Below are positions 8,575-24,636 of a stretch of 41,875 bases of DNA, piece by piece. How positions within the stretch are numbered: the first letter of the stretch is position 1; each line of letters begins with the position of its first letter. A program made the translations under genes and the position numbers. The DNA lies in the IMG/VR virus record IMGVR_UViG_3300026541_000012, positions 1-41,875 of that record; one strand, 5' to 3'. The stretch is from a virus. Its lineage: Duplodnaviria > Caudoviricetes. The notes under the pieces were generated by a model. The model searched no databases and was not told the origin of the DNA. It was given only the letters and a program-made list of their open reading frames with translations.

Positions 8575-8771
8575 TTACTTTCCTTCTGCCTATCGAGGTT
8601 AGTGGCGCAATGCAACACTGCCTTATGCGATATCTGAAATCGGTCATGACATACGGGCTCAACAGGTGTGAAGTCTGCACTCTTGGCACCATCGAATATC
8701 CCCAATGAACCAATAAACAGGGCGATTGTTATAATCAGTGCCAGTAGAAGTTCTGCACGTAATGGCTTCAT
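8571..8771 (-). CDS. small membrane protein
   Basis: N-terminal TM; ATGA coupling. Confidence 0.5.
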   Translation of the reverse strand: MKPLRAELLLALIITIALFIGSLGIFDGAKSADFTPVEPVCHDRFQISHKAVLHCATNLDRQKESK

Positions 8772-9130
8772 GACAATACTTCGCTATCGATAATAGCCTT
8801 AAGTGTATTCATGGTTCTGTTTTTGTCATTTGCTTTTGCTATTCGTTCTTTGCGGTCGTATAGAAAACCACGCCAAATCTTAGCTACACCGTGCATATCT
8901 GAGTCAATCCAAAATTCATTCAGCGCATCCACTTGGCGAGTAAGCTGGCAGGCGAGGGCATCTAATGTTGTCTGTGCTGCGTCTTGCAATAAACACCTTA
9001 TATGCGGCTCGCTTAACGACCATTTGTAATCCAAGGAATCAATCCAGTCTTCACCATCCCAAACACGTATAAGTGCCCAGTGATCAGCTAGTTCGACCGC
9101 CTTGCGAATATAGTCTTGGTCAGACTTCAT
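8768..9130 (-). CDS. hypothetical protein
   Basis: ATGA-coupled within the leftward operon. Confidence 0.6.
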   Translation of the reverse strand: MKSDQDYIRKAVELADHWALIRVWDGEDWIDSLDYKWSLSEPHIRCLLQDAAQTTLDALACQLTRQVDALNEFWIDSDMHGVAKIWRGFLYDRKERIAKANDKNRTMNTLKAIIDSEVLS

Positions 9131-9636: not shown

Positions 9637-9852
9637 TTATTTTAGCGGTCGAAAACATTGGTTTATAAGACCTTGAGATTCCCTAACGCTTAATTTTTCA
9701 CTATAGTTTTTGTAAGTGCCGGATATTATGTTCCTTACTGTGCTTGAGTTTATTCCGGTGAGGTGACCAATTTGTTTGCGGCCCAGACCATCAAAAGATA
9801 ACTCTCGGATCTCGGCAGCAACATCTAATGGAACAGACTGATGAGCACTCAT
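9637..9852 (-). CDS. small HTH DNA-binding protein
   Basis: GLGRKQIGHLTGINSSTVRNII helix-turn-helix pattern. Confidence 0.55.
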   Translation of the reverse strand: MSAHQSVPLDVAAEIRELSFDGLGRKQIGHLTGINSSTVRNIISGTYKNYSEKLSVRESQGLINQCFRPLK

Positions 9853-10409
9853 GAAGTACCCCATGTTTTCATTTGATTACACTCGGTTGCTGTAAACCAG
9901 CCGCCCTTCGTATCAGCCACCCATATTGATCGTTGATCCTCATGGCTGACCTCTGCCCATGCCTCTTTCGCAGCAGACCACATCTCCTCTGCCAGAAAGC
10001 CACGAATAGCTAACAAAGAATCATGATTATTCTCGTTAGCCTCGGTGGTAGCCTGAAACGACGTATAAAGCTCTTTCTCGCGCTGCTGGGTGATGGCTGC
10101 GGCCACTTCGTCGGCAGATGCTATCTCGGTGCCCGCCAGCCCAAAAAAGGCCAGAGCACGCCCTACGGCGCTTGTCTCAGCATTCTCAAGGGCAGATGTC
10201 TCGTTAATTTTGGATGAGCCGCGAAACTCCTCAGCATAACCCGTGGCAATCACGGCTTCCCCATTCATGATAAGGGCTTTCATGATGATCTTTTCGCTAT
10301 CATGAGAGATAAGCTGAGTTTCAATGCCGAGGTTGGGCTCGTCCTCTTTGAACTTGGCAATGCGCTCCGCCACTGTCCAATAATCTTTATTGTGAATTTT
10401 AACCGGCAT
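9849..10409 (-). CDS. putative ssDNA-annealing recombinase (ERF-like)
   Basis: GYAEEFRGSSKINETSALENAETSAVGRALAFFGL motif; typical early-operon position. Confidence 0.6.
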   Translation of the reverse strand: MPVKIHNKDYWTVAERIAKFKEDEPNLGIETQLISHDSEKIIMKALIMNGEAVIATGYAEEFRGSSKINETSALENAETSAVGRALAFFGLAGTEIASADEVAAAITQQREKELYTSFQATTEANENNHDSLLAIRGFLAEEMWSAAKEAWAEVSHEDQRSIWVADTKGGWFTATECNQMKTWGTS

Positions 10410-10802
10410 CTAATTTTCTCCCTGCAGCATGAGTGCATGATTTTCTTCCATCGCCTCCTCCCACTCTTCCGGCGACATCAATGAATCTCTTGTCATGTGC
10501 CTGACTATTTGATTGATGTACATGGCCTCGACAATAAAACCTCTTGCGCCGTAGCGCGGAGTATGTTCTGGCAAAAAACAATATAACCATTGCAGTGCGG
10601 CCTCTGATACCGGCGTGATAATCCACTTTGTTATATGGTTCTCAAGTTCGTAATCCCAGGTAGGTCCGAAATCGGAAGGTTGAACATCGCTCCAAAGGTT
10701 CGGACCCTGTATGGCTTTGCTTTGAGTAAATATGCCAGCATATGGAACAGACTCGTCATGTATGCTGACAGCGCTTAAGGGAATAGAGGTGTCGTCGTTC
10801 AT
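10410..10802 (-). CDS. hypothetical protein
   Basis: Start at MNDDTS with GAGG RBS, coupled to neighbours. Confidence 0.55.
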   Translation of the reverse strand: MNDDTSIPLSAVSIHDESVPYAGIFTQSKAIQGPNLWSDVQPSDFGPTWDYELENHITKWIITPVSEAALQWLYCFLPEHTPRYGARGFIVEAMYINQIVRHMTRDSLMSPEEWEEAMEENHALMLQGEN

Positions 10803-11182
10803 TGTTTGTCCTCGACTGGATACGCTTCTGGGTGTCGGTTCATGCACTCAATGACTGATTGGGCGAAGTCGCCAAGTTTGTAGCTGAATATTCCAGATCC
10901 TTCGTCGCAATCTTGCTTGGCATATTCAAGCACTTCGGCACGAAACCAGGTTGGCGCTCCGTGATACACCCACTGCAATACAGCATAGTCGTGGCTTGCG
11001 TTTTGTGAGGGGTCTGGAAGACCGTCAGTAGTCCAGATTCCGTTCGGGTTCAGCCAAGCAACATAGCCCTGTTGATGGGCAAAAGTACCCGGCTCTGACT
11101 GGCGCTTAGACCAACCCATCAAGATTGCCAAGCGCTCTCTGTCCGATTGCTGATTCACCGCGTTATCTCCGTCAGTGTTCAT
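10799..11182 (-). CDS. hypothetical protein
   Basis: ERLAILMGW...LPD motif common in small phage early proteins. Confidence 0.6.
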   Translation of the reverse strand: MNTDGDNAVNQQSDRERLAILMGWSKRQSEPGTFAHQQGYVAWLNPNGIWTTDGLPDPSQNASHDYAVLQWVYHGAPTWFRAEVLEYAKQDCDEGSGIFSYKLGDFAQSVIECMNRHPEAYPVEDKQ

Positions 11183-11679: not shown

Positions 11680-11735
11680 ATACACGATAGCACCCTGCTA
11701 TTGCTATGTCCAGATTAATTTGTTACATTAACGGC
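11680..11735. promoter_or_regulatory. overlapping divergent sigma70-type promoters with operator-like repeats
   Basis: Rightward TTGCTA-17-TACATT (TGn extended); leftward TGGACA-17-TATCGT; inverted repeat ATAGCA-CCC-TGCTAT. Confidence 0.6.
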
Positions 11736-11921
11736 ATGAAAACATTTAAAAGCATATGGATTAGTCTAGAATCAGACGAAAAACAAGAACTTGCAGATGA
11801 TTTGGATACTAGTAAACAGTACTTATCGCAGATAGCATACCGCCATCGTCAACCAAGTGCGGATATGATTCGTCGGCTCGTTGCTAGCGATCCACGATTA
11901 CATGCGGAGATGTTTTTGTAA
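11736..11921 (+). CDS. Cro/YdaS-like HTH regulator
   Basis: ELADDLDTSKQYLSQIAYRHRQPS HTH; first gene after the divergent promoter. Confidence 0.75.
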   Translation: MKTFKSIWISLESDEKQELADDLDTSKQYLSQIAYRHRQPSADMIRRLVASDPRLHAEMFL

Positions 11922-12466
11922 TGTATGGAGTTAGCCACGATGATTGGCAAGAATTGCATTGGACCCGGAAAATGCGGTTCAAGGCTTATGCTGATGTTCA
12001 TGCAGCTATTCGTCGTGGCGACATTCCAAAACTAACCAAAGATTCTGTATGTGCTGACTGCGATCAACAAGCTATCGCGTATGAACACAGAAACTATTTT
12101 TATCCGCTAACCGTTGAAGCAGTCTGTACCAAGTGCAATATTTTGCGTGGTGAGGGTTTTCCGCCAGTTGAAGGAAAGTCAGTTAATAGCAATGGTTTAC
12201 CTTATCGGTTTGGTGGTAACAACTCTTGGAATGGCCTGGGTGGTGGCGTAGAAAAGTATACAAAACAGCCCATTGCGGTTAACGCATCAACTAGATTGTC
12301 AGAGCGGGACGAAGTAGATCGACGGTTCGACGGTGGGATGCCCCAGTATCGAATAACTCAATTAAGTGAAATGAATGGCTCAATAAAAGCCATTACACGC
12401 GGTGATCTACGTTACGAGTTTTTCAAAAAGCATGACCCCTATTACATCTGCGAGGACGTTGTATGA
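11921..12466 (+). CDS. HNH-like Zn-binding protein
   Basis: AIRRG..CADC...EHRNY..PL.V..VCTKCN pattern of phage HNH-like domains. Confidence 0.55.
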   Translation: MYGVSHDDWQELHWTRKMRFKAYADVHAAIRRGDIPKLTKDSVCADCDQQAIAYEHRNYFYPLTVEAVCTKCNILRGEGFPPVEGKSVNSNGLPYRFGGNNSWNGLGGGVEKYTKQPIAVNASTRLSERDEVDRRFDGGMPQYRITQLSEMNGSIKAITRGDLRYEFFKKHDPYYICEDVV

Positions 12467-12645
12467 GTCTCAAAGAAAAGTCCTGCCTTACCTGCAAGCT
12501 ACCTTTGCCTTTAAGCATGTACTACCGCGATGGCAACAAGACAGATGGCCGCCGAGCTACCTGTAAGGAATGTGAGAAGGCTCGCAGTCGCATCAGAAGA
12601 CAAGCCAAGATATCGACTATATTAAATAACTGGGGAAGGGCGTGA
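12463..12645 (+). CDS. stand-alone CxxC-CxxC zinc finger
   Basis: KSCLTCK...YYRDGNKTDGRRATCKEC. Confidence 0.6.
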   Translation: MSLKEKSCLTCKLPLPLSMYYRDGNKTDGRRATCKECEKARSRIRRQAKISTILNNWGRA

Positions 12646-12947
12646 ACCGTGAAAGAGCGAAAGAACTATTACCTGTTCTGCAGGCTTATGCCGAAGGTAA
12701 AGATATTGAGTTTCGAGGCAACTATTCTCTTGATCCAATGGGTGAATGGAGGGACATGCCAAAAGATGATTCCTTAACTCTTACCTTCCCAGCAGACGAC
12801 TATGAATATCGTATCAAGATTAAACCGCTTGAGGTGTTCATGGAAATAACAGAGAAAAATGGCAAAGTCGTTGGGTTTCATCACACAATGGATGTAATGC
12901 ATCAAAAGCCCGGTATTACTTACAAGCTGTTTCGAGAGGTTTTATGA
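12642..12947 (+). CDS. conserved phage hypothetical protein
   Basis: MNRERAKELLPVLQAYAEGKDIEFR...EYRIK family motif. Confidence 0.7.
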   Translation: MNRERAKELLPVLQAYAEGKDIEFRGNYSLDPMGEWRDMPKDDSLTLTFPADDYEYRIKIKPLEVFMEITEKNGKVVGFHHTMDVMHQKPGITYKLFREVL

Positions 12948-13144
12948 ATCCCATCGGCCACCAAGACGAGGTTATGGTTGTGCTGCCAATAGGCACGGAT
13001 TGTCGCGAGCTTAAATTTAGAGCAGATGGTCTACCACAAAGATTAGTTGCTATGTTTCATAATGCAGTGCAGGACTATGCAACGAGAAGAACTGGCCGGC
13101 TGCGTGCGGAGATAAATGAACTGCTCGGACGGGCGAAGCGGTGA
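12944..13144 (+). CDS. hypothetical protein
   Basis: ATGA coupling and GAGG RBS. Confidence 0.5.
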   Translation: MNPIGHQDEVMVVLPIGTDCRELKFRADGLPQRLVAMFHNAVQDYATRRTGRLRAEINELLGRAKR

Positions 13145-13284
13145 CTGATCATGTGGCGTGAGTTAAACGAGAGCGAAAGACAATCTGTGATTACTGATAT
13201 GTGGGTAGTGTTTGTGGTCGCAGTAATCGTTGGCGGACTGATGGCCTTGGCTGTGATATTGGACCTAATTTAAGGAGCAAAAAC

Positions 13285-13677
13285 ATGAATATCAGACAAG
13301 CAATACTAATGGCAGCAGATTCTATTGAGCAGAATCCGAAGCTGTTTGATTTTAACACTGCTGAAATTCCTGACTGTAATACACCGGGTTGCGCATTGGG
13401 TTGGATTGCCGCTCATTTAGGCGAGAGCATTCACTTATATGGTGGATGGAACTACAAGAAATTAGCCCGCGTAATGGGAACCCGTGGTGATATTGAGTTC
13501 TATGAACGAATGAATGCGCTGAATGGACACAAGTGGAAACACAATGCAGACAAGTGCGCCAAAACTCTCCGCCTATACGCAGACAAGTACCACTCCGCGC
13601 CTATCGAAAGCCATGCTGGCATTCCCGCTGTTGTACTTGAGATATTCGACCTGACACGAGTAACTTCTAGTGAGTGA
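13285..13677 (+). CDS. hypothetical protein (CxTxxCxxGW family)
   Basis: AAGGAG RBS before ATG 13285; CNTPGCALGW motif. Confidence 0.65.
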   Translation: MNIRQAILMAADSIEQNPKLFDFNTAEIPDCNTPGCALGWIAAHLGESIHLYGGWNYKKLARVMGTRGDIEFYERMNALNGHKWKHNADKCAKTLRLYADKYHSAPIESHAGIPAVVLEIFDLTRVTSSE

Positions 13678-13945
13678 CTTGATTGAACGGCTTGAAGGCC
13701 ACATCGAGACGCTGCGTGGCGTTGCGTCTAGCGTTTACTCCGATGATATCCGGGAGGCCGTAGACGCATTGGAACAGGCACAGACACGAATCAAAGAAAT
13801 TGAAGAGATTCTGAAAGTCGAACGAAACCTACTTGATCGTGTTGAGGAGCTTGAGACGGCGCTACACAAAATAAAACTCCTCGGTGGTTCTCCACAAATT
13901 ACTTTATTGGCGATCAAGGCACTTGAACAGTTGAGTGGAGAATAG
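13670..13945 (+). CDS. coiled-coil hypothetical protein
   Basis: MSDLIERL...EAVDALEQ motif common in phages. Confidence 0.6.
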   Translation: MSDLIERLEGHIETLRGVASSVYSDDIREAVDALEQAQTRIKEIEEILKVERNLLDRVEELETALHKIKLLGGSPQITLLAIKALEQLSGE

Positions 13946-13947
13946 CG

Positions 13948-14205
13948 ATGAAAACTAACACTATATTTATGTTGATGTTATTGGTTGGATGCACGATCGA
14001 AAGTGGGGATGTAACGGCCTCATACGAGTTTAACAAATGTATTGATACCAGAGATGGCGAAGAATTTACGCTTGTCGGTAACACAGCAAGAAATGCTCGT
14101 GTTGGTATTGGGGCTCCAAGCTGTGTTGATATTGATGACACTACCGGCCGAACAAGAACCTTATGCAGTTACCATACAGCATGGATTAAGTGTGAGGTTG
14201 AATGA
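13948..14205 (+). CDS. small lipoprotein
   Basis: Lipobox LVGC; GGAG RBS. Confidence 0.6.
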   Translation: MKTNTIFMLMLLVGCTIESGDVTASYEFNKCIDTRDGEEFTLVGNTARNARVGIGAPSCVDIDDTTGRTRTLCSYHTAWIKCEVE

Positions 14206-14251
14206 TCGTGTTAAATAATCCATTACCAGCACCACCAGAGGGAGAGTCAGA

Positions 14252-14599
14252 GTGAATGATAACGAACAATACTGCTTGCATAGACATACATGTAGCTACA
14301 CAAGCGGATTTTACTGTGAAGACTGCGGTAACTTCTTTGACAAAGCTTCGCCTACGTACCGGAGCACTGCATTACTAACTAGTCTCGCTATGGTTATGAA
14401 TAATATCAACGCTGACAGATGCCGAAGTGGAAGGCACGGTGATGAAGATGTGGATGCAATGGTAGACAAACTTATAGCCACCAAACCTGATGATGACTAT
14501 GAGGGCGTTATTGCTGAAGCTGAAATAATTATGTTGAAGTATAACGTTAATTCGGAATCAGCCAGTGTAACGATAGGTGAGATTGGGCAACAATTGTAA
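14252..14599 (+). CDS. hypothetical Cys/His protein
   Basis: GGGAG RBS; C.H...CEDC motif. Confidence 0.5.
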   Translation: MNDNEQYCLHRHTCSYTSGFYCEDCGNFFDKASPTYRSTALLTSLAMVMNNINADRCRSGRHGDEDVDAMVDKLIATKPDDDYEGVIAEAEIIMLKYNVNSESASVTIGEIGQQL

Positions 14600-14622
14600 G
14601 TGTCCGATAACAAACAAGGGGA

Positions 14623-14888
14623 TGATGGTGAGTGAGACACTTGCAAAAATCGGTGATAAATGCTGGGCGTGTCGATATCGATTTAGATCAGGAGATACGG
14701 TCAGGCACGTTCCTATTTATCATGGTTTTGCACCGGCTCATAAGCTTGAACCAAATTGGACTATGTGGTGTTTACGTTGTGCTGATTCTCAAGATTTAAT
14801 ACCAACTGAAAAAGAAAGTTATACATGGGGTAATTGGCCGGAAGGATTTAGAACCATGAGCAAACGTTGGTTTGATTTATGGATATGA
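14623..14888 (+). CDS. hypothetical CxxC-CxxC protein
   Basis: AAGGGG RBS near the ATGs; CWAC...CLRC. Confidence 0.45.
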
Positions 14889-14899
14889 AAAGCACATAC

Positions 14900-15019
14900 T
14901 CAATGAACGAAGCCCCGACCCGTATTGCACGGACCAGGGCTTCAAATCTGGTTGATAGAAAGGTTTGCCGCCTAAACCAGACACACGCATCATATCACAA
15001 GATGTTGTGTCAATGTCAA
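14900..15019 (-). ncRNA. putative short antisense (oop-like) transcription unit
   Basis: Minus strand TTGACA...TGaTATGAT promoter (15019-14989), then hairpins 14947-14981 and 14909-14943, the latter terminator-like. Confidence 0.45.
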
Positions 15020-15039
15020 AGCGTCAACCCAAAATGCTG

Positions 15040-15545
15040 CAACCAGCGGACTCCAGTCTCCGATAGTGACTGTTTTGATGGTGGTCAAGGTCGGCAGCTG
15101 CAGACAATACCGATCAACCTGAGATACCGAGATCGTAAACTCGGCTCTGGTGCCACCTTCAAAGCAGTTACACACTGGCGGCGAATTAACGTCGATAGAG
15201 TCAGTATTAGGAAGGGTGCTGTCCTTGAGGTGGTAATAGACCAAAGAGGCGGTGAGGACCACGGCGGCCTTGAATCGAATAGGGGTGCAGTCGAGTCGGT
15301 AGGCGTAGGGTTGATTTCGATAGAGACCCTTGGAGTCCGGCCACCCTTCACTAATGCTGATTCATATAGTCGGCTGAATCCCGATAGATATGCCTTGTCC
15401 GTGGCAGATATTCAAGAAAGCGTGACACTGTTGAATCAAACCCAGGCACTGTCCACCCCTGACAACCTGGTGGGAGGCGCAGCAATGCGAACCATACCTA
15501 CCGCTAGTAGTGGCCTAAACCTCCCTACAAAGGGGGAAGCTATGC
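15040..15545 (+). ncRNA. large structured, pseudoknotted non-coding RNA candidate
   Basis: 20-bp and 21-bp stems containing G-U pairs, several 7-9-bp long-range pairings and a GNRA hairpin; the overlapping ORF is not protein-like. Confidence 0.7.
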
Positions 15546-15558
15546 TCAGGAGAAAGTC

Positions 15559-15783
15559 ATGACAGCAGAAATACATAAATTACGACCGAAGGAAGAATGC
15601 CAGATAGAGTCATTTTTCCATTGCAGTGAATGTATGAAAGAGATTCCAGATGATGAATCTCCAATGACTTATCAGCATATTCAAGCAGGTTGGACGATTG
15701 AGGGTTTTCAGGTCTGGTGTGTACGTCACGATCTAAACATTATCCACTTGGACTTTGAAGGACAGAAGCACCGATGTATCTAG
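15559..15783 (+). CDS. conserved phage hypothetical protein
   Basis: AGGAG RBS; FFHCSEC...GWT..GFQVWCVRHDLNIIHLDFEG motif. Confidence 0.7.
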   Translation: MTAEIHKLRPKEECQIESFFHCSECMKEIPDDESPMTYQHIQAGWTIEGFQVWCVRHDLNIIHLDFEGQKHRCI

Positions 15784-15836
15784 CTATACCCAATAACGGG
15801 CCAAGTGATAGGTATGGAGAAGTACAGGGGAACAGA

Positions 15837-16028
15837 ATGAAAGTTTGGGAATGCAAATTAGTTCTATCCGATGAGGCTGAATTGCCTGATGGTGCTGATT
15901 TTCCAATGAGGCAAGCCCTGCGGATTGCTTGCGAAGAAATGACCGGACAACTGCCAATTGATATTTTCTCTGGGTGGGCCGGAAGTCTTACAGAAATAGA
16001 GAAAAAGGTGATGAGGACTAGGGCATGA
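15837..16028 (+). CDS. hypothetical protein
   Basis: MKVWECK...LPDGADFPMRQA; AGGGG RBS. Confidence 0.55.
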   Translation: MKVWECKLVLSDEAELPDGADFPMRQALRIACEEMTGQLPIDIFSGWAGSLTEIEKKVMRTRA

Positions 16029-16270
16029 AAGGAAAACGGCCAGAAATAAAGGACTCCATTGAGGCGATACAGTACGCCCTAATTCACGATGAGGAATATC
16101 GTCACGTGTGGGTGTGCAATGTTGCTATGGGTATCTATGACACCAAGAAAAAGAAGGGTGAAACCGCTCACGAGTGGCGGCAGAGGTGTGCTGAACAATT
16201 CATCAAGTACCTATGTGCTGGACATCCTGATGATCCAACCTCGCAGTTCATGGAAGCTATTGGGCACTGA
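16025..16270 (+). CDS. hypothetical protein
   Basis: GAGG RBS and ATGA coupling. Confidence 0.6.
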   Translation: MKGKRPEIKDSIEAIQYALIHDEEYRHVWVCNVAMGIYDTKKKKGETAHEWRQRCAEQFIKYLCAGHPDDPTSQFMEAIGH

Positions 16271-16386
16271 CTTAGGAGAACCTCAATGAAAGCACTTAAA
16301 TACATCGGACTGTGCATTCTCGTAATAATAGCGGTCGTTGTAATGTTGGCATTCACAGCCTTTTTGCTGGTGCCTGGAGTCATGAT

Positions 16387-16605
16387 GTGACCGAAGATGA
16401 CTCTAAGCGTTGTATTGAGTGCTTCGTACTGAAATATCTGGATCAGTATTATCGCAATAAAAAGTCTGCAGACGGCCGTGTAGGAACGTGCATCAAATGT
16501 AAGTGTGCAACCGCTGAGGCACGCAAGCGCCAGCCTTCGCAAAACTCATTGCTGCTATACCGATGGGCTACTCGCACCAACGAGCAGAATACTGATTACA
16601 ACTGA
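16387..16605 (+). CDS. stand-alone CxxC-CxxC zinc finger (paralog of 12463-12645)
   Basis: KRCIEC...YYRNKKSADGRVGTCIKC; GTG start after GGAG, exact start uncertain. Confidence 0.55.
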   Translation: MTEDDSKRCIECFVLKYLDQYYRNKKSADGRVGTCIKCKCATAEARKRQPSQNSLLLYRWATRTNEQNTDYN

Positions 16606-16616
16606 CAGGAACCGAA

Positions 16617-16775
16617 ATGAGTAAATATAAGATAAAAGATATTCAGGAATTACTGATATCTGCCACTGCCGTTTGCGACAACGCGACTTACGATGAAGCT
16701 GAGAAGCACTATATTGTGAGCACAGACGTGATAGATAGACTAACCGATATTGAGGTTAAGTTGCAGGGCCTGTAG
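16617..16775 (+). CDS. hypothetical protein (52 aa)
   Basis: AGGA RBS; fills the gap. Confidence 0.45.
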   Translation: MSKYKIKDIQELLISATAVCDNATYDEAEKHYIVSTDVIDRLTDIEVKLQGL

Positions 16776-16797
16776 TCCTACAACACCAAGAACATAA

Positions 16798-17127
16798 ATG
16801 AAAACAGATTCGTATTTCAACACCACGAACGTCACTGGCGCACAGCTACTGAGATACCATAACACTGCATTGTCACAAGAGGAGCGGTTATTGGCCTATT
16901 TCCACGCCGCATACAATGCAGATGGTGAATACGTGCTGTTGACACCAACTCTTGCACTAATGTTGGTGTTCTCAAAGAGGGTGCCGATAACGTCTGTGAG
17001 GCGCGCTCTATCCAATCTCACCAGTGACGGTAAGTTGATGAAGGATGGTAAGGCTAGAGGGATATACGGGCGTCCTGAGCATTACTGGCGGTTGGTTGAG
17101 CAAGAGCCACAGAGGAGACTGTTATGA
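16798..17127 (+). CDS. winged-helix DNA-binding protein
   Basis: PITSVRRALSNLTSDGKL...GIYGRPEHYW. Confidence 0.6.
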   Translation: MKTDSYFNTTNVTGAQLLRYHNTALSQEERLLAYFHAAYNADGEYVLLTPTLALMLVFSKRVPITSVRRALSNLTSDGKLMKDGKARGIYGRPEHYWRLVEQEPQRRLL

Positions 17128-17342
17128 TGAGTAGATGGACGAAAGATGACCCGACTGAACCTGGATATTATTGATGGAGATATGGTCCAGAGGACGATCT
17201 TCCAGATCTTTTGCGTTTATATTTATCGCCAGTTGGAATGATGGCTCCGAATGACGAGAATGCTTTGCATGTATCACCACCTTCTGAGTTAGGGGGCGAA
17301 TGGTGGATCGAGCGTGTTCAGGAACCGCCTTCAGATGACTGA
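17124..17342 (+). pseudogene. small phage ORF interrupted by an in-frame TGA at 17172-17174
   Basis: MMSRWTKDDPTEPGYY*WRYGP...GGEWWIERVQEPP; strong GAGGAG RBS and ATGA coupling. Confidence 0.6.
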
Positions 17343-17395
17343 GGCTTTCTTCATAAAAACAACAGCACGCACGCTCATGCCAGCGAGTGATCTCA

Positions 17396-17722
17396 ATGGA
17401 CATTGATAAACAGCTTGAAGATGCCCTGAATCGAAGGGCCGACTATGGAAGCCTCAGAGGCAAGCAGGCGACCGCAGACGACTATCTCAAGGGTGTATAT
17501 GCATTGCTTTATCCTGATGCTCCAGAGAATATTAAGACTGTTCCAGAGCGTGATGCATGGGTTAAGCGTCAAACTCGGTACACAGACGCTGTGCTTGAAA
17601 AGGAAAACCGTTACGGAGACTGGGAAGCTGCGCGTTTAAAGATGCAGATACTGTTTGCTGCTGTGGAGAAATATAGAACCGACGCTGCTACCGAGCGAAA
17701 TATGATGCGAGCAAGCCAATGA
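17396..17722 (+). CDS. conserved helical phage protein
   Basis: Recurrent family found near phage recombination and nuclease genes (ERDAWV...YRT..ATER). Confidence 0.6.
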   Translation: MDIDKQLEDALNRRADYGSLRGKQATADDYLKGVYALLYPDAPENIKTVPERDAWVKRQTRYTDAVLEKENRYGDWEAARLKMQILFAAVEKYRTDAATERNMMRASQ

Positions 17723-18009
17723 AAAAGCGTTATGGCAGAAAGACTGACGCCAACCAACCAGATATTGTGCGAGCGCTTAGAAAGTCGGGTCGTATTGTTT
17801 TCGAGATTGAAGAGCCCTTCGATTTACTGATAGATAACATCGGCGAATGGTTGGTTATGGAAATCAAGAACCCAGATACCCACGCCAGACAGAAAGGCGG
17901 CAGCAAAATGACCAAGAAACAGGATGAAATACTAGCGACTCTATCGGCTAAAGTTTTGGTGGCAGAAACGGTAGAGCAAGCGCTTAATCTGGTACTGAAG
18001 AGATATTAA
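17719..18009 (+). CDS. VRR-NUC / PD-(D/E)xK nuclease (resolvase-like)
   Basis: RKTDANQPDIVRALRKSG...PFDLL...MEIKNP. Confidence 0.8.
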   Translation: MKKRYGRKTDANQPDIVRALRKSGRIVFEIEEPFDLLIDNIGEWLVMEIKNPDTHARQKGGSKMTKKQDEILATLSAKVLVAETVEQALNLVLKRY

Positions 18010-18064
18010 TGAGAATACGCAAATTCAATCCGATTAAGGGTGGCAGTGTGGAGGTTTTGATATC

Positions 18065-18301
18065 GTGAGTGACTTATTTGAGCAACTAGCCGCTATTGAA
18101 CATGAGCGGTGGGCAAGCTGGCAAAAATACCTCCACAGTCTTTGCATAAAAGATAGCTTGGGAAATCTAACAATGTCAGCTAATCGAGTTCAGCATTGGG
18201 AGCGCCAAATAGAAACGTCTTACACCGATCTTTCGGAGCGAGAAAAGGAAATGGACAGGGATCAGGTACGAAAATACTGGCATTTAATCAATGAGTCTTA
18301 A
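18065..18301 (+). CDS. hypothetical protein
   Basis: EQLAAIEHERWASW...YTDLSEREKEMDR motif. Confidence 0.65.
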   Translation: MSDLFEQLAAIEHERWASWQKYLHSLCIKDSLGNLTMSANRVQHWERQIETSYTDLSEREKEMDRDQVRKYWHLINES

Positions 18302-18599
18302 ATCAAAAATCATGGTCGATGCCCGCTCAGGTCATGCCTGTATACGCTGTAAAATCCAAGATGGAACTGTTTGTGGCAGACACTACAATGGAATAAGACA
18401 GCATCTCTACGGGAAGGGGCGCGGTATCAAGGGGCATCCATTTATGGTTGCTGATCTTTGTAATTTGTGTGATGCATATTTTCAAGAGGGCTCTGTACCT
18501 AAAATGAACGTCGAAGCTGTAACTGATTATTCAGAGGAATTTCAACACTACTGCATATTGTCTTTGATAAGGCGTGAACAGAATGGAGTTTTAGGATGA
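18291..18599 (+). CDS. YbcO/DUF1364-like putative nuclease
   Basis: AR...CIRC...H...GKGRGIK...LCNLCD pattern. Confidence 0.65.
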   Translation: MSLKSKIMVDARSGHACIRCKIQDGTVCGRHYNGIRQHLYGKGRGIKGHPFMVADLCNLCDAYFQEGSVPKMNVEAVTDYSEEFQHYCILSLIRREQNGVLG

Positions 18600-18760
18600 G
18601 CGATCTACCACAAGTTAACGAGTCCGTGAGAGTTTGGTATGGATCTGGATTTATTCGCAGCGGCCACGTTGTAAGCGTTGATGCACAAGACAGAGAAGTG
18701 CTTGTTGAGTTCAACTATGAAATTCCTGATGCTTGGGTAAGAGAAGATCAGTTGTGCTAA
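18596..18760 (+). CDS. small beta-barrel-like hypothetical protein (54 aa)
   Basis: Read manually: MSDLPQVNESVRVWYGSGFIRSGHVVSVD...; ATGA coupling. Confidence 0.5.
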   Translation: MSDLPQVNESVRVWYGSGFIRSGHVVSVDAQDREVLVEFNYEIPDAWVREDQLC

Positions 18761-19139
18761 GCTAAAAATGCCCCTCCTGTTGGTGATTCCAAACAACCCA
18801 AAGAGAAGGGTCCAGTAACACAAGGAAGACTAAGCGCTTAGTTGGTGAAGCTGGACCCGCTTTCCTGAAAACCCTGTATACTGTGCCCATGCCCACTATC
18901 CAAGTACAGTATGGACAACATAGAACATCCGCAGCTAGTTTGTGGCGAGGCTTTTGCCATCGTCAATGGTTTTCTGTTGGAACTGGAGCGGGTTTGTGAA
19001 AAGAGTCTTTCAGATAGCTATAGCGACAGTATTGCTTGGGAGCCTGACGATTGAGGCAGACCCGTTCAAAACGTGGAACTGGACGACGAACCTGACCCTC
19101 CAGTAAAGGGTTCAGGATGCTCAATCTAAAGGAAACCTA

Positions 19140-19616
19140 ATGGCACTACCAACCACTGTTAATCAGGCACTCAATGACGCGTTGCGGGCAACGTCTGAAG
19201 ACAAGGCGGTGACGCTAACAAGCGTTCTGCTGCTCATCAAGCAGCGGTGCAACAATATTGTTGGTGAGGTGCCGATGAAAGGACGCCGACTTTCTCAAAT
19301 TCATAACTCCCTGTTTGAGCATAAGGCATTTATCCAATCACATAATCTGGTGACGTTAGGCTCAAGGACCGTTCTTGCCAATACTGATCCACAGTATGCA
19401 GATGCTGCGGCGGTAGCGGTTGATATTCAAGCGGCTAATAGTGCCTTTATTCAGCTGACTGTAGAAATTGAAACAGTGCTTGCCATTTTTCGTGCTGCTA
19501 ACACTATTGTTGACAATGACCCCACAACGGGACAGGTGATTGAGCCTGATATTCCAGAGGCTGATATGACCGCGCTACGTGCGTTCGCGGCATCGGTGGA
19601 AGCCACGCTAGGCTAA
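19140..19616 (+). CDS. hypothetical protein (likely virion)
   Basis: AAGGA RBS; first gene of a late-like block. Confidence 0.6.
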   Translation: MALPTTVNQALNDALRATSEDKAVTLTSVLLLIKQRCNNIVGEVPMKGRRLSQIHNSLFEHKAFIQSHNLVTLGSRTVLANTDPQYADAAAVAVDIQAANSAFIQLTVEIETVLAIFRAANTIVDNDPTTGQVIEPDIPEADMTALRAFAASVEATLG

Positions 19617-23865: not shown

Positions 23866-24636
23866 ATGAGCATTGTTTGGTCTTGTGGTGGTGGTACACA
23901 GTCAGCTGCAATAGCGGCATTGATTATCCAGGGCAAATTGCCAAGACCTGATTTATCTGTGATTTCTGATACTGGTCGTGAAGCGTCAGAAACTTGGTCT
24001 TTCTTTCATAAATTTATGTATCCGCAGCTAAAAGATGCTGGTGTGATATTGCATCGCATTCCGCATAGTTTTAATGGTAACGGTTTGAATACGGTTGATC
24101 TGTTTTCAGGTAAGAAGAAGAAAACGATTGTTGTGCCAATGTATACGACCGAAGCGCAAGGCCAACATGAAGGGATGTTGCCGAAATACTGTTCAAATGA
24201 ATGGAAGTCTCGGCCAGTGCAGCGGTTCATTAGAAATCAAGGACTGACTTCCGGAGAGATTTGGATCGGGTTTTCTATTGATGAAATGGACCGGATGAGA
24301 GGCAGGGATCTTCGGCAAAAATGGAATCATACTTATCCGCTCGTTGATCTTAGATTAACTCGTGGCGATTGCATGTTGTTGGTTGAGGAAATGGGATGGG
24401 GGATACCACCACGATCAGCTTGCTGGATGTGTCCCTATAGGAACGATCAGGAATGGCTGATGATAAAGGGAACCGAAGATTTCGACAAAGCGGTGGCGCT
24501 AGAAAAGGAGCTGCAAGAATCTGACCCGGATGTCTATTTCCATAGTTCTTGTAAGCCTTTGGAGCAAGTTGATTTTAATGAAAATCAGGGCGATCTATTT
24601 TCCAAGCCATGTGCCAGCGGGATGTGTTTTACATGA
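23866..24636 (+). CDS. PAPS-reductase-family / PP-loop adenine nucleotide alpha-hydrolase
   Basis: SCGGGTQS PP-loop, SDTGRE, C.NEWK..P, WIGFSIDE, RSACWMCP and terminal CASGMC. Confidence 0.8.
   Translation: MSIVWSCGGGTQSAAIAALIIQGKLPRPDLSVISDTGREASETWSFFHKFMYPQLKDAGVILHRIPHSFNGNGLNTVDLFSGKKKKTIVVPMYTTEAQGQHEGMLPKYCSNEWKSRPVQRFIRNQGLTSGEIWIGFSIDEMDRMRGRDLRQKWNHTYPLVDLRLTRGDCMLLVEEMGWGIPPRSACWMCPYRNDQEWLMIKGTEDFDKAVALEKELQESDPDVYFHSSCKPLEQVDFNENQGDLFSKPCASGMCFT

Follow-up and report, generated by a model that had tools for sequence, protein, structure and literature searches.

A modular structured element in the replication slot of a P22-like phage lacking recognisable replication genes: a candidate RNA-primed origin

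The virus record IMGVR_UViG_3300026541_000012 (Duplodnaviria; Caudoviricetes) was analysed over its entire extent of 41,875 nucleotides, here called the window (the record itself is G000). The replication slot of its early region is occupied by a long structured element, which is real and uncatalogued and which we read, with a probability of roughly 55%, as an RNA-primed replication origin of the ColE1/MRB type. We favour this reading because recognisable initiators are absent, the element is universal among the records that hold the region, a headless O-like gene adjoins it in a relative, a two-stem-loop antisense RNA is predicted within its 5′ part, and neither iterons nor a DnaA box was found in the window. 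A first-pass annotation, made from the letters of the window, had already placed an RNA-dependent start of replication here; that interpretation is partly supported and was not refuted by the tests that it had itself named, although it had overlooked the modular array, the multiple 3′ ends and the open frame. The parts of the element are:

14885 to 15545, + strand: the long structured element (RNA II-like) as a whole unit, with folding z -4.55 and homologs in other records
14879 to 15562, + strand: a 227-codon frame across the whole element, overlapping the stop of the upstream open reading frame (ORF) and the start of the downstream ORF
14989 to 15019, - strand: predicted antisense promoter, read from the sequence, with an extended -10 at 14997-14989 and TTGACA 19 nt upstream
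14995 to 15010, no strand assigned: NrdR-box-like palindrome in the promoter spacer, in single copy; the stricter pattern matches nowhere else in the window or in G001
14900 to 14983, - strand: predicted antisense RNA (RNA I/oop-like), two stem-loops by folding
15066 to 15171, + strand: cassette 1, a constant closing stem of ~19 bp round a variable branched insert
15198 to 15363, + strand: cassette 2, a constant closing stem of ~21 bp round a variable insert
15371 to 15422, + strand: small hairpin module shared with G005
15434 to 15539, + strand: 3′ block of type I, candidate hybrid or priming site, known in four DNA copies

Replication genes and completeness of the genome

The window comes from a P22-like podovirus, with terminase, portal, scaffold, coat, head-closure and ejection matches when its 110 ORFs were compared with PHROGs. 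The same comparison yielded no initiator, helicase, primase, polymerase, single-stranded DNA-binding protein (SSB), integrase or ParA, and none of these functions was found in the 27 window ORFs scanned with Pfam or the 48 scanned with NCBIfam. Six-frame searches of G000 matched neither phrog_270 nor DnaB_C. Relatives were found through the neighbouring proteins and the coat protein, and five records hold the element with long flanks (the window, G001, G005, G006 and G002), two of the five being fragments. Across these five the six-frame phrog_270 search matched only G002, at the C-terminal positions 183-290 of 383, and DnaB_C matched none; a full initiator or a DnaB helicase accompanies the element in none of them. 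No initiator, helicase or primase was detected among 102 ORF entries of G001 or 76 ORFs of G006, and the scans of the window, G001 and G006 returned neither ParA nor ParB. G001 carries a proofreading-type exonuclease, NinB, RusA and a possible SSB, and G006 carries an SSB. The earlier statement that the window has no recognisable replication protein is thus confirmed by the PHROGs, Pfam and NCBIfam scans and by the six-frame searches, and the lack of initiator, helicase, primase and polymerase genes is real at the profile level.

The two contig ends code for 592 and 465 amino acids of tail-type sequence, and at the same place in G001 one uninterrupted frame of about 1,100 codons is found, to which only the 592-aa end aligns. 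The assembly gap, which might have hidden an initiator, is most likely a short stretch inside one tail gene. Because both contig ends fit one G001-type tail protein, the window genome looks nearly complete, as first proposed, although CheckV estimates its completeness at 63%. Direct terminal repeats are present in G001 (42,852 bp) and G006 (39,233 bp), for which the CheckV estimates are only 60 and 70%. The records G003, G004, G007, G008 and G009 are fragments in which no early gene of the window recurs, and G009 is a distant integrase-bearing phage whose scanned part has no replication arm. Contigs of GTDB genomes gave no match by peptide or by a 22-base pattern; in exact-motif scans of viral contigs, 7 of 8 matches (one scan) and 26 of 28 (another) were due to chance and were dropped.

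Conservation and database status of the element

The element was present in all five records that hold the region, and its 3′ part also lies on L042, a 1.2-kb contig; it had no match in five of eight relatives, the fragments G003, G004, G007, G008 and G009. The DNA copies are about 320-720 nt long. The gene downstream is different in every copy, and of 33 other early genes one is common to both complete relatives, a weak match (E ~1e-5) within a small multi-copy family. Within the early region, nothing but the element is clearly shared. In G006 the gene directly behind it (L057:7628-8056) encodes a GIY-YIG/T5orf172-like endonuclease with weak homing-endonuclease PHROG matches, which could mobilise the element.

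Folding of positions 14880-15560 gave z scores of -4.55 on the + strand and -1.97 on the - strand (20 shuffles each). Folding in sliding 200-nt segments showed no clear peak, because the stems of the element are long-range. A profile of the element's translation matches 76 clusters among 1.84 billion representatives; these clusters were found as ORFs, are open frames by ascertainment and consist of translations only, and 18 long members compared with PHROGs gave no match. No match to the element reached the gathering score in Rfam 15, where only chance-level matches occurred at E<=10. ARAGORN reported no tRNA, either in the window or at the loci of the element, blastn and tblastn against GenBank phages gave no true match to the element, and blastn against the 72,556 plasmid records of PLSDB gave none at E<=1. 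Neither the element nor a shuffled cassette array was found in published papers, subscription papers and bioRxiv supplements lying outside the coverage. Two other identities were considered and rejected: a self-targeting guide copied downstream of the element, for which no consistent repeat was found, and a hepatitis delta virus (HDV)/theta-type ribozyme, whose required nested pairing was not seen by eye.

The predicted antisense RNA

The 5′ unit contains a minus-strand -10-like hexamer that is kept in all five aligned copies; the consensus promoter scan allows spacers of 16-18 nt only and so does not list the predicted antisense promoter. The putative RNA measures about 85-110 nt across the copies and forms two stem-loops (three in G002), the last of which is a long terminator-like stem; in the window this second stem-loop is a 16-bp terminator-like stem with a weak U tail. 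Folding z scores of the unit range from -2.8 to -4.7 in the five copies (-3.6 in the window), and its stems vary in sequence while the pairing stays. The oop-like antisense unit noticed at first pass thus gains a hexamer and a fold conserved in 5/5 copies, and remains a prediction from the sequence. The palindrome in the promoter spacer, which resembles an NrdR box, has no counterpart under the stricter pattern in G005, G006 or G002. NrdR sites are described as tandem palindromes (PMC2892513, excerpt).

Cassettes

In each long cassette an outer pair of constant arms is followed inwards by a bulge or mismatch and a short inner stem, which encloses a variable insert. The window and G002 have two of them, G001 and G006 one, and G005 none; because G005 has none, they are not needed for the core. 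The arms of cassette 2 are identical between the window and G006 at 33/33 and 23/23 positions, and the insert is different. Among the 86 positions of seven cassette stems, which were chosen by the author's patterns and are not independent, 71 pairs are Watson-Crick, 15 are G-U and none is A-C, which points to the + strand as the single strand.

Such counts are equally compatible with an origin acting as folded single-stranded DNA, that is, a primosome or primase assembly site exposed by transcription, since DNA hairpins tolerate G-T pairs and the counts cannot separate RNA from a displaced + strand; the positional and conservation evidence is likewise the same. The conserved antisense promoter and terminator-like stem, the tRNA-like inserts and the predicted knot favour RNA, however, and we consider a DNA-level origin unlikely.

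Six types of slot were distinguished in 82 translations; their order is constant, their combinations are many, and an element has up to four. Comparison of 101 inserts yielded 22 alike pairs, 11 of which stand in different slots, and translations resembling a tRNA T-loop occur in 16 of the 101 against 2.8 expected (0/2000 shuffles). On this sequence evidence inserts move between slots and some are tRNA-like. The modelled stem lengths would fit about two turns of double-stranded RNA, as for an RNase III substrate, and from these lengths RNase III probably cuts the cassettes out as passenger small RNAs.

Related structures were noticed elsewhere. In the late region of G007, between the portal and scaffold genes (L059:13790-14140), a small RNA is closed by a stem of this cassette type; a tRNA-like structure with a long insertion comes next, and then tRNA-Gly(TCC). 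About 170 nt upstream of the element in G005 (L012:6660-6800, - strand) a second hairpin cluster ends in a lone cassette right arm, 20/21 identical to that of G001, and is possibly a displaced or decayed unit. In G009, tRNA-Trp lies in a long gene-free stretch (L061:3180-3930) together with several other hairpins, among them one that carries a T-loop-like motif; an integrase and two tRNA-Trp(CCA) genes are present in this record.

The 3′ block

Type I of the 3′ block, found in the window, G001, G005 and L042, combines a hairpin whose loop is C-rich, a 6-bp stem enclosing two hairpins, and a terminal G-run that is predicted to pair with the C-rich loop as a pseudoknot. The 6-bp stem shows one compensatory change, in L042, and the inner hairpin (P3) differs in sequence in all four copies; plain folding of the block is unremarkable (z -0.1). 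On visual inspection, types II and III likewise finish with a G-run complementary to a C-run further upstream. As read from the sequence, the ribosome-binding site of the gene that follows coincides with the 3′ G-run.

The open frame through the element

The first-pass annotation saw no convincing ORF over ~180 aa in this operon. The 227-codon frame is open beyond chance, none of 1000 shuffles equalling it in the window, and it is not a conserved protein. In five copies the frame is open over 228/233, 160/176, 108/115, 196/213 and 190/240 codons, values matched by 0, 1, 13, 0 and 0 of 1000 shuffles, respectively. It stops early in G002, homologs use two different frames for the type I tail (12 vs 10 of 28), and its translation has no family match in PHROGs, Pfam or NCBIfam. 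Third positions of the capsid gene are 45% identical between the window and G006, while the constant cassette arms are identical at 56/56 positions; because of this difference, and because the tail shifts frame, the sequence is constrained as nucleotides and not as protein. It is likely an anti-polarity or coupling frame. The frame as an initiator was rejected on the grounds of this nucleotide-level constraint and of the tail being read in two frames.

Whether an unrecognised small protein is the initiator also concerns a second candidate:

16798 to 17127, + strand: small winged-helix (wHTH) protein, with generic wHTH fold matches, none at E<=0.001

Most early ORFs have no family, the wHTH fold occurs in initiators, with a DnaD N-domain among the weak matches (E 0.02-0.03), and the 227-codon frame is, as said, open beyond chance. 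By contrast, no early protein is convincingly common to the three complete or near-complete genomes, and the frame, conserved as nucleotides, shifts at its end, terminates prematurely in G002 and is interrupted in L042. The wHTH gene is whole in G005, reduced to a 20-residue remnant in G001 and absent from G006. The wHTH protein, which the first-pass annotation had named as a possible initiator, was rejected as an essential one, being a generic winged helix that is dispensable in complete relatives. We regard a small-protein initiator of any kind as highly improbable.

Headless O-like genes

In G002 and L042, free-standing proteins of 117-118 aa are encoded whose matches to replication-initiator profiles are confined to C-terminal positions (for example 177-272 of 383; phrog_26426, E 8e-17; phrog_270, E 2e-14). 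Homologs occur in 87 phage records, 18 of the 25 listed bearing replication or primosome labels, and eight of nine further homologs are 115-123 aa long. In L042 the gene lies directly behind the element, starting some 25 nt past the 3′ block; in G002 it lies about 2 kb upstream; in the window, G001, G005 and G006 even this C-terminal O-like half is absent. A fold search with the headless protein placed DnaD domains (one at Z 4.1, with rmsd 3.3 and 67 aligned, another at Z 3.9) level with unrelated helical entries; DnaT was not among the matches. The L042-type order (antisense unit, array, O C-terminus) suggests that the DNA-binding half of O, with its iterons, gave way to the RNA.

An RNA-primed origin and its chief rival

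The transcript required by an RNA-primed origin would start at the cro promoter:

11706 to 11921, + strand: Cro-like helix-turn-helix (HTH) protein (phrog_35, E 4e-6; HTH_3, E 3e-4)

This assignment agrees with the first-pass Cro and is confirmed in PHROGs and Pfam; the gene likely opens the rightward early operon, and that operon is the likely source of the long transcript. We propose the following course. Early transcription would run through 14885-15545, with the open frame keeping the transcript from Rho termination and coupling the downstream genes. The 3′ block would fold to the knot and its G-rich end would stay hybridised to the template as an R-loop, which host RNase H and Pol I would turn into a primer; host restart proteins would then load the helicase, helped in G002 and L042 by the surviving headless O-like protein. 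The antisense RNA of ~85 nt is predicted to pair with the 5′ part and to alter its folding or translation, thereby setting timing or excluding kin. From the optional long stems between the two ends, with their interchangeable inserts, RNase III would probably release passenger small RNAs. To reconcile the open frame with this scheme, one may speculate that the antisense RNA, by binding directly behind the start codon, keeps the transcript from being translated and thereby favours the hybrid.

In a fuller form, an initiator protein would have been replaced, via a headless-O stage, by an antisense-gated primer RNA for lytic replication, its body turned into cassettes in a set order, with inserts (tRNA-like and other small RNAs) that change places among slots and phages and are processed out, such that one transcript would start replication and deliver variable effector RNAs. 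We put this forward tentatively, as a possibility at clearly less than even odds.

A number of findings weigh against an RNA-primed origin. Many small phages lack recognisable replication genes. Covariation is not significant (132/500 shuffles, on 4-5 DNA copies), and whole-element folding is stronger on the - strand in G001, G005 and G002, with no consistent + bias. The 3′ block, which would prime, exists in at least three non-homologous types (I, II and III in 28, 11 and 3 of 82 proteins, respectively). The consensus scan gave no + strand sigma-70 promoter near 14880, unlike ColE1 RNA II, and the GC skew suggested as a check at first pass proved uninformative, following transcription with no switch at the element. 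The cassettes alone do not imply replication, because G007 has the same stem in its late region. With no integrase or ParA in the window, a plasmid-like need for negative copy control is unsupported. The pre-primer region, non-coding in ColE1/MRB-type replicons, is here an open frame in 5/6 DNA copies (it is broken in L042), which fits awkwardly with a plain ColE1 R-loop; the transcripts prone to R-loops are described as untranslated ones (PMC3977913, excerpt).

The chief rival makes the element an RNA regulatory hub and small-RNA precursor, with replication by recombination or host restart and no fixed origin; the antisense RNA would tune the early operon, and RNase III would free cargo RNAs, acting as tRNA-like decoys or supplements. 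Such a hub would resemble lambda oop or the immunity regions of P4 and P1, the latter having ORFs that traverse structured RNA. A hub accounts for the coupled frame being kept open, for the G-run serving as ribosome-binding site, for the alike inserts across slots and the excess of T-loop-like ones, and for the cassette stem beside tRNA-Gly in G007, and the annealing, SSB, NinB and RusA-type genes of relatives agree with it. It leaves unexplained, however, why the element alone is universal while the downstream gene differs in each copy, why headless O remnants stand beside it, and why G005 keeps both ends without any long cassette. We consider the hub doubtful.

Comparison with known systems

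An RNA-primed origin would make the element a variant of known RNA-based replicons, with a cassette layer of which no description was found in the literature. Like ColE1/pMB1, it has no encoded initiator, a predicted long folded RNA of similar size and a predicted short antisense RNA to the 5′ part (PMC5043065 and PMC12966454, excerpts). Unlike ColE1, it lies in a tailed phage, has no dedicated promoter that was found, an open frame, optional cassettes and exchangeable 3′ ends, and unlike both ColE1 and MRB it has no DNA similarity to plasmid origins (72,556 plasmid records). With the MRB (marine RNA-based) plasmid origins of the pB1067 family it shares an antisense two-stem-loop RNA I, here predicted, overlapping RNA II, the lack of a consensus RNA II promoter and of iterons, and an origin that is the sole region conserved in the family (PMC3035462, excerpt). 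According to the same excerpt, MRB RNA I is 68 nt long with two stem-loops and RNA II at least 465 nt, and the MRB origins are ORF-free and form one homologous 488-bp block, whereas the element is modular and ~320-720 nt long.

Prophages of non-RepA cluster A mycobacteriophages are also phages without an initiator gene that use a non-coding RNA region as origin; those origins lie beside parABS, act in the prophage only and are dispensable for lytic growth (PMC7157519, excerpt). The window has no parA, integrase or other replication gene, so that, as an origin, the element would have to serve lytic replication, whereas the published phage RNA origins serve prophage maintenance only.

In the lambda/P22 layout a cII-oop-O/P module occupies this place. 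The element resembles it in lying after cro and before nin-type genes, in an antisense unit just ahead of O's would-be start and in the O-like C-terminal half kept in two relatives, and differs in having no O N-terminal domain, iterons or P/helicase gene. RNase III stems are known to release stable RNAs in rRNA operons and in T7 early RNA (PMC6212723, excerpt). The cassettes, too, have ~20 bp stems closing structured RNA on one strand, and differ in having several slots in fixed order, with inserts swapped between slots.

If it is an origin, the element would be a concrete, clonable candidate of ~320-700 bases for how a phage family without a recognisable replication gene replicates, and the headless O genes would be evolutionary intermediates. 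Replication aside, structured-RNA cassettes that can be exchanged within an in-frame array are a means for phages to carry variable small RNAs that has not been catalogued; at least 76 protein clusters, called hypothetical by gene callers, reveal it. The element is also a possible source of new plasmid origins and RNA scaffolds.

Other genes of the early region and its surroundings

The VRR-NUC and YbcO-like labels given at first pass found no direct database matches: ORF 17719 is tied to the endonuclease phrog_93 via homologs only, and ORF 18291 had no relevant match in any scan. A further PHROGs match lies on the - strand:

9849 to 10409, - strand: phrog_11717 protein (PHROGs match)

It is a possible single-strand annealing protein, because its G006 homolog directly precedes the SSB gene. 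Small related proteins of 100-130 aa, without family match, recur several times per genome in both early arms throughout the family (window 8771-9130 and 10802-11182; L002, L012, L057 and L058). Two overlapping same-strand frames on L002 (8194-9201 and 8504-9166) match the DNA-methyltransferase families phrog_363 and phrog_1008, an arrangement known from cytosine methyltransferases whose two subunits are encoded by overlapping genes. Positions 18762-19140 of the window, where the early operon gives way to the late genes, are gene-poor and hold several short inverted repeats. This stretch is probably the late promoter/terminator region, and a Q-like antiterminator was not recognised. A gene of the PAPS-reductase family (phrog_424) lies at 23866-24636, immediately upstream of the terminase region.

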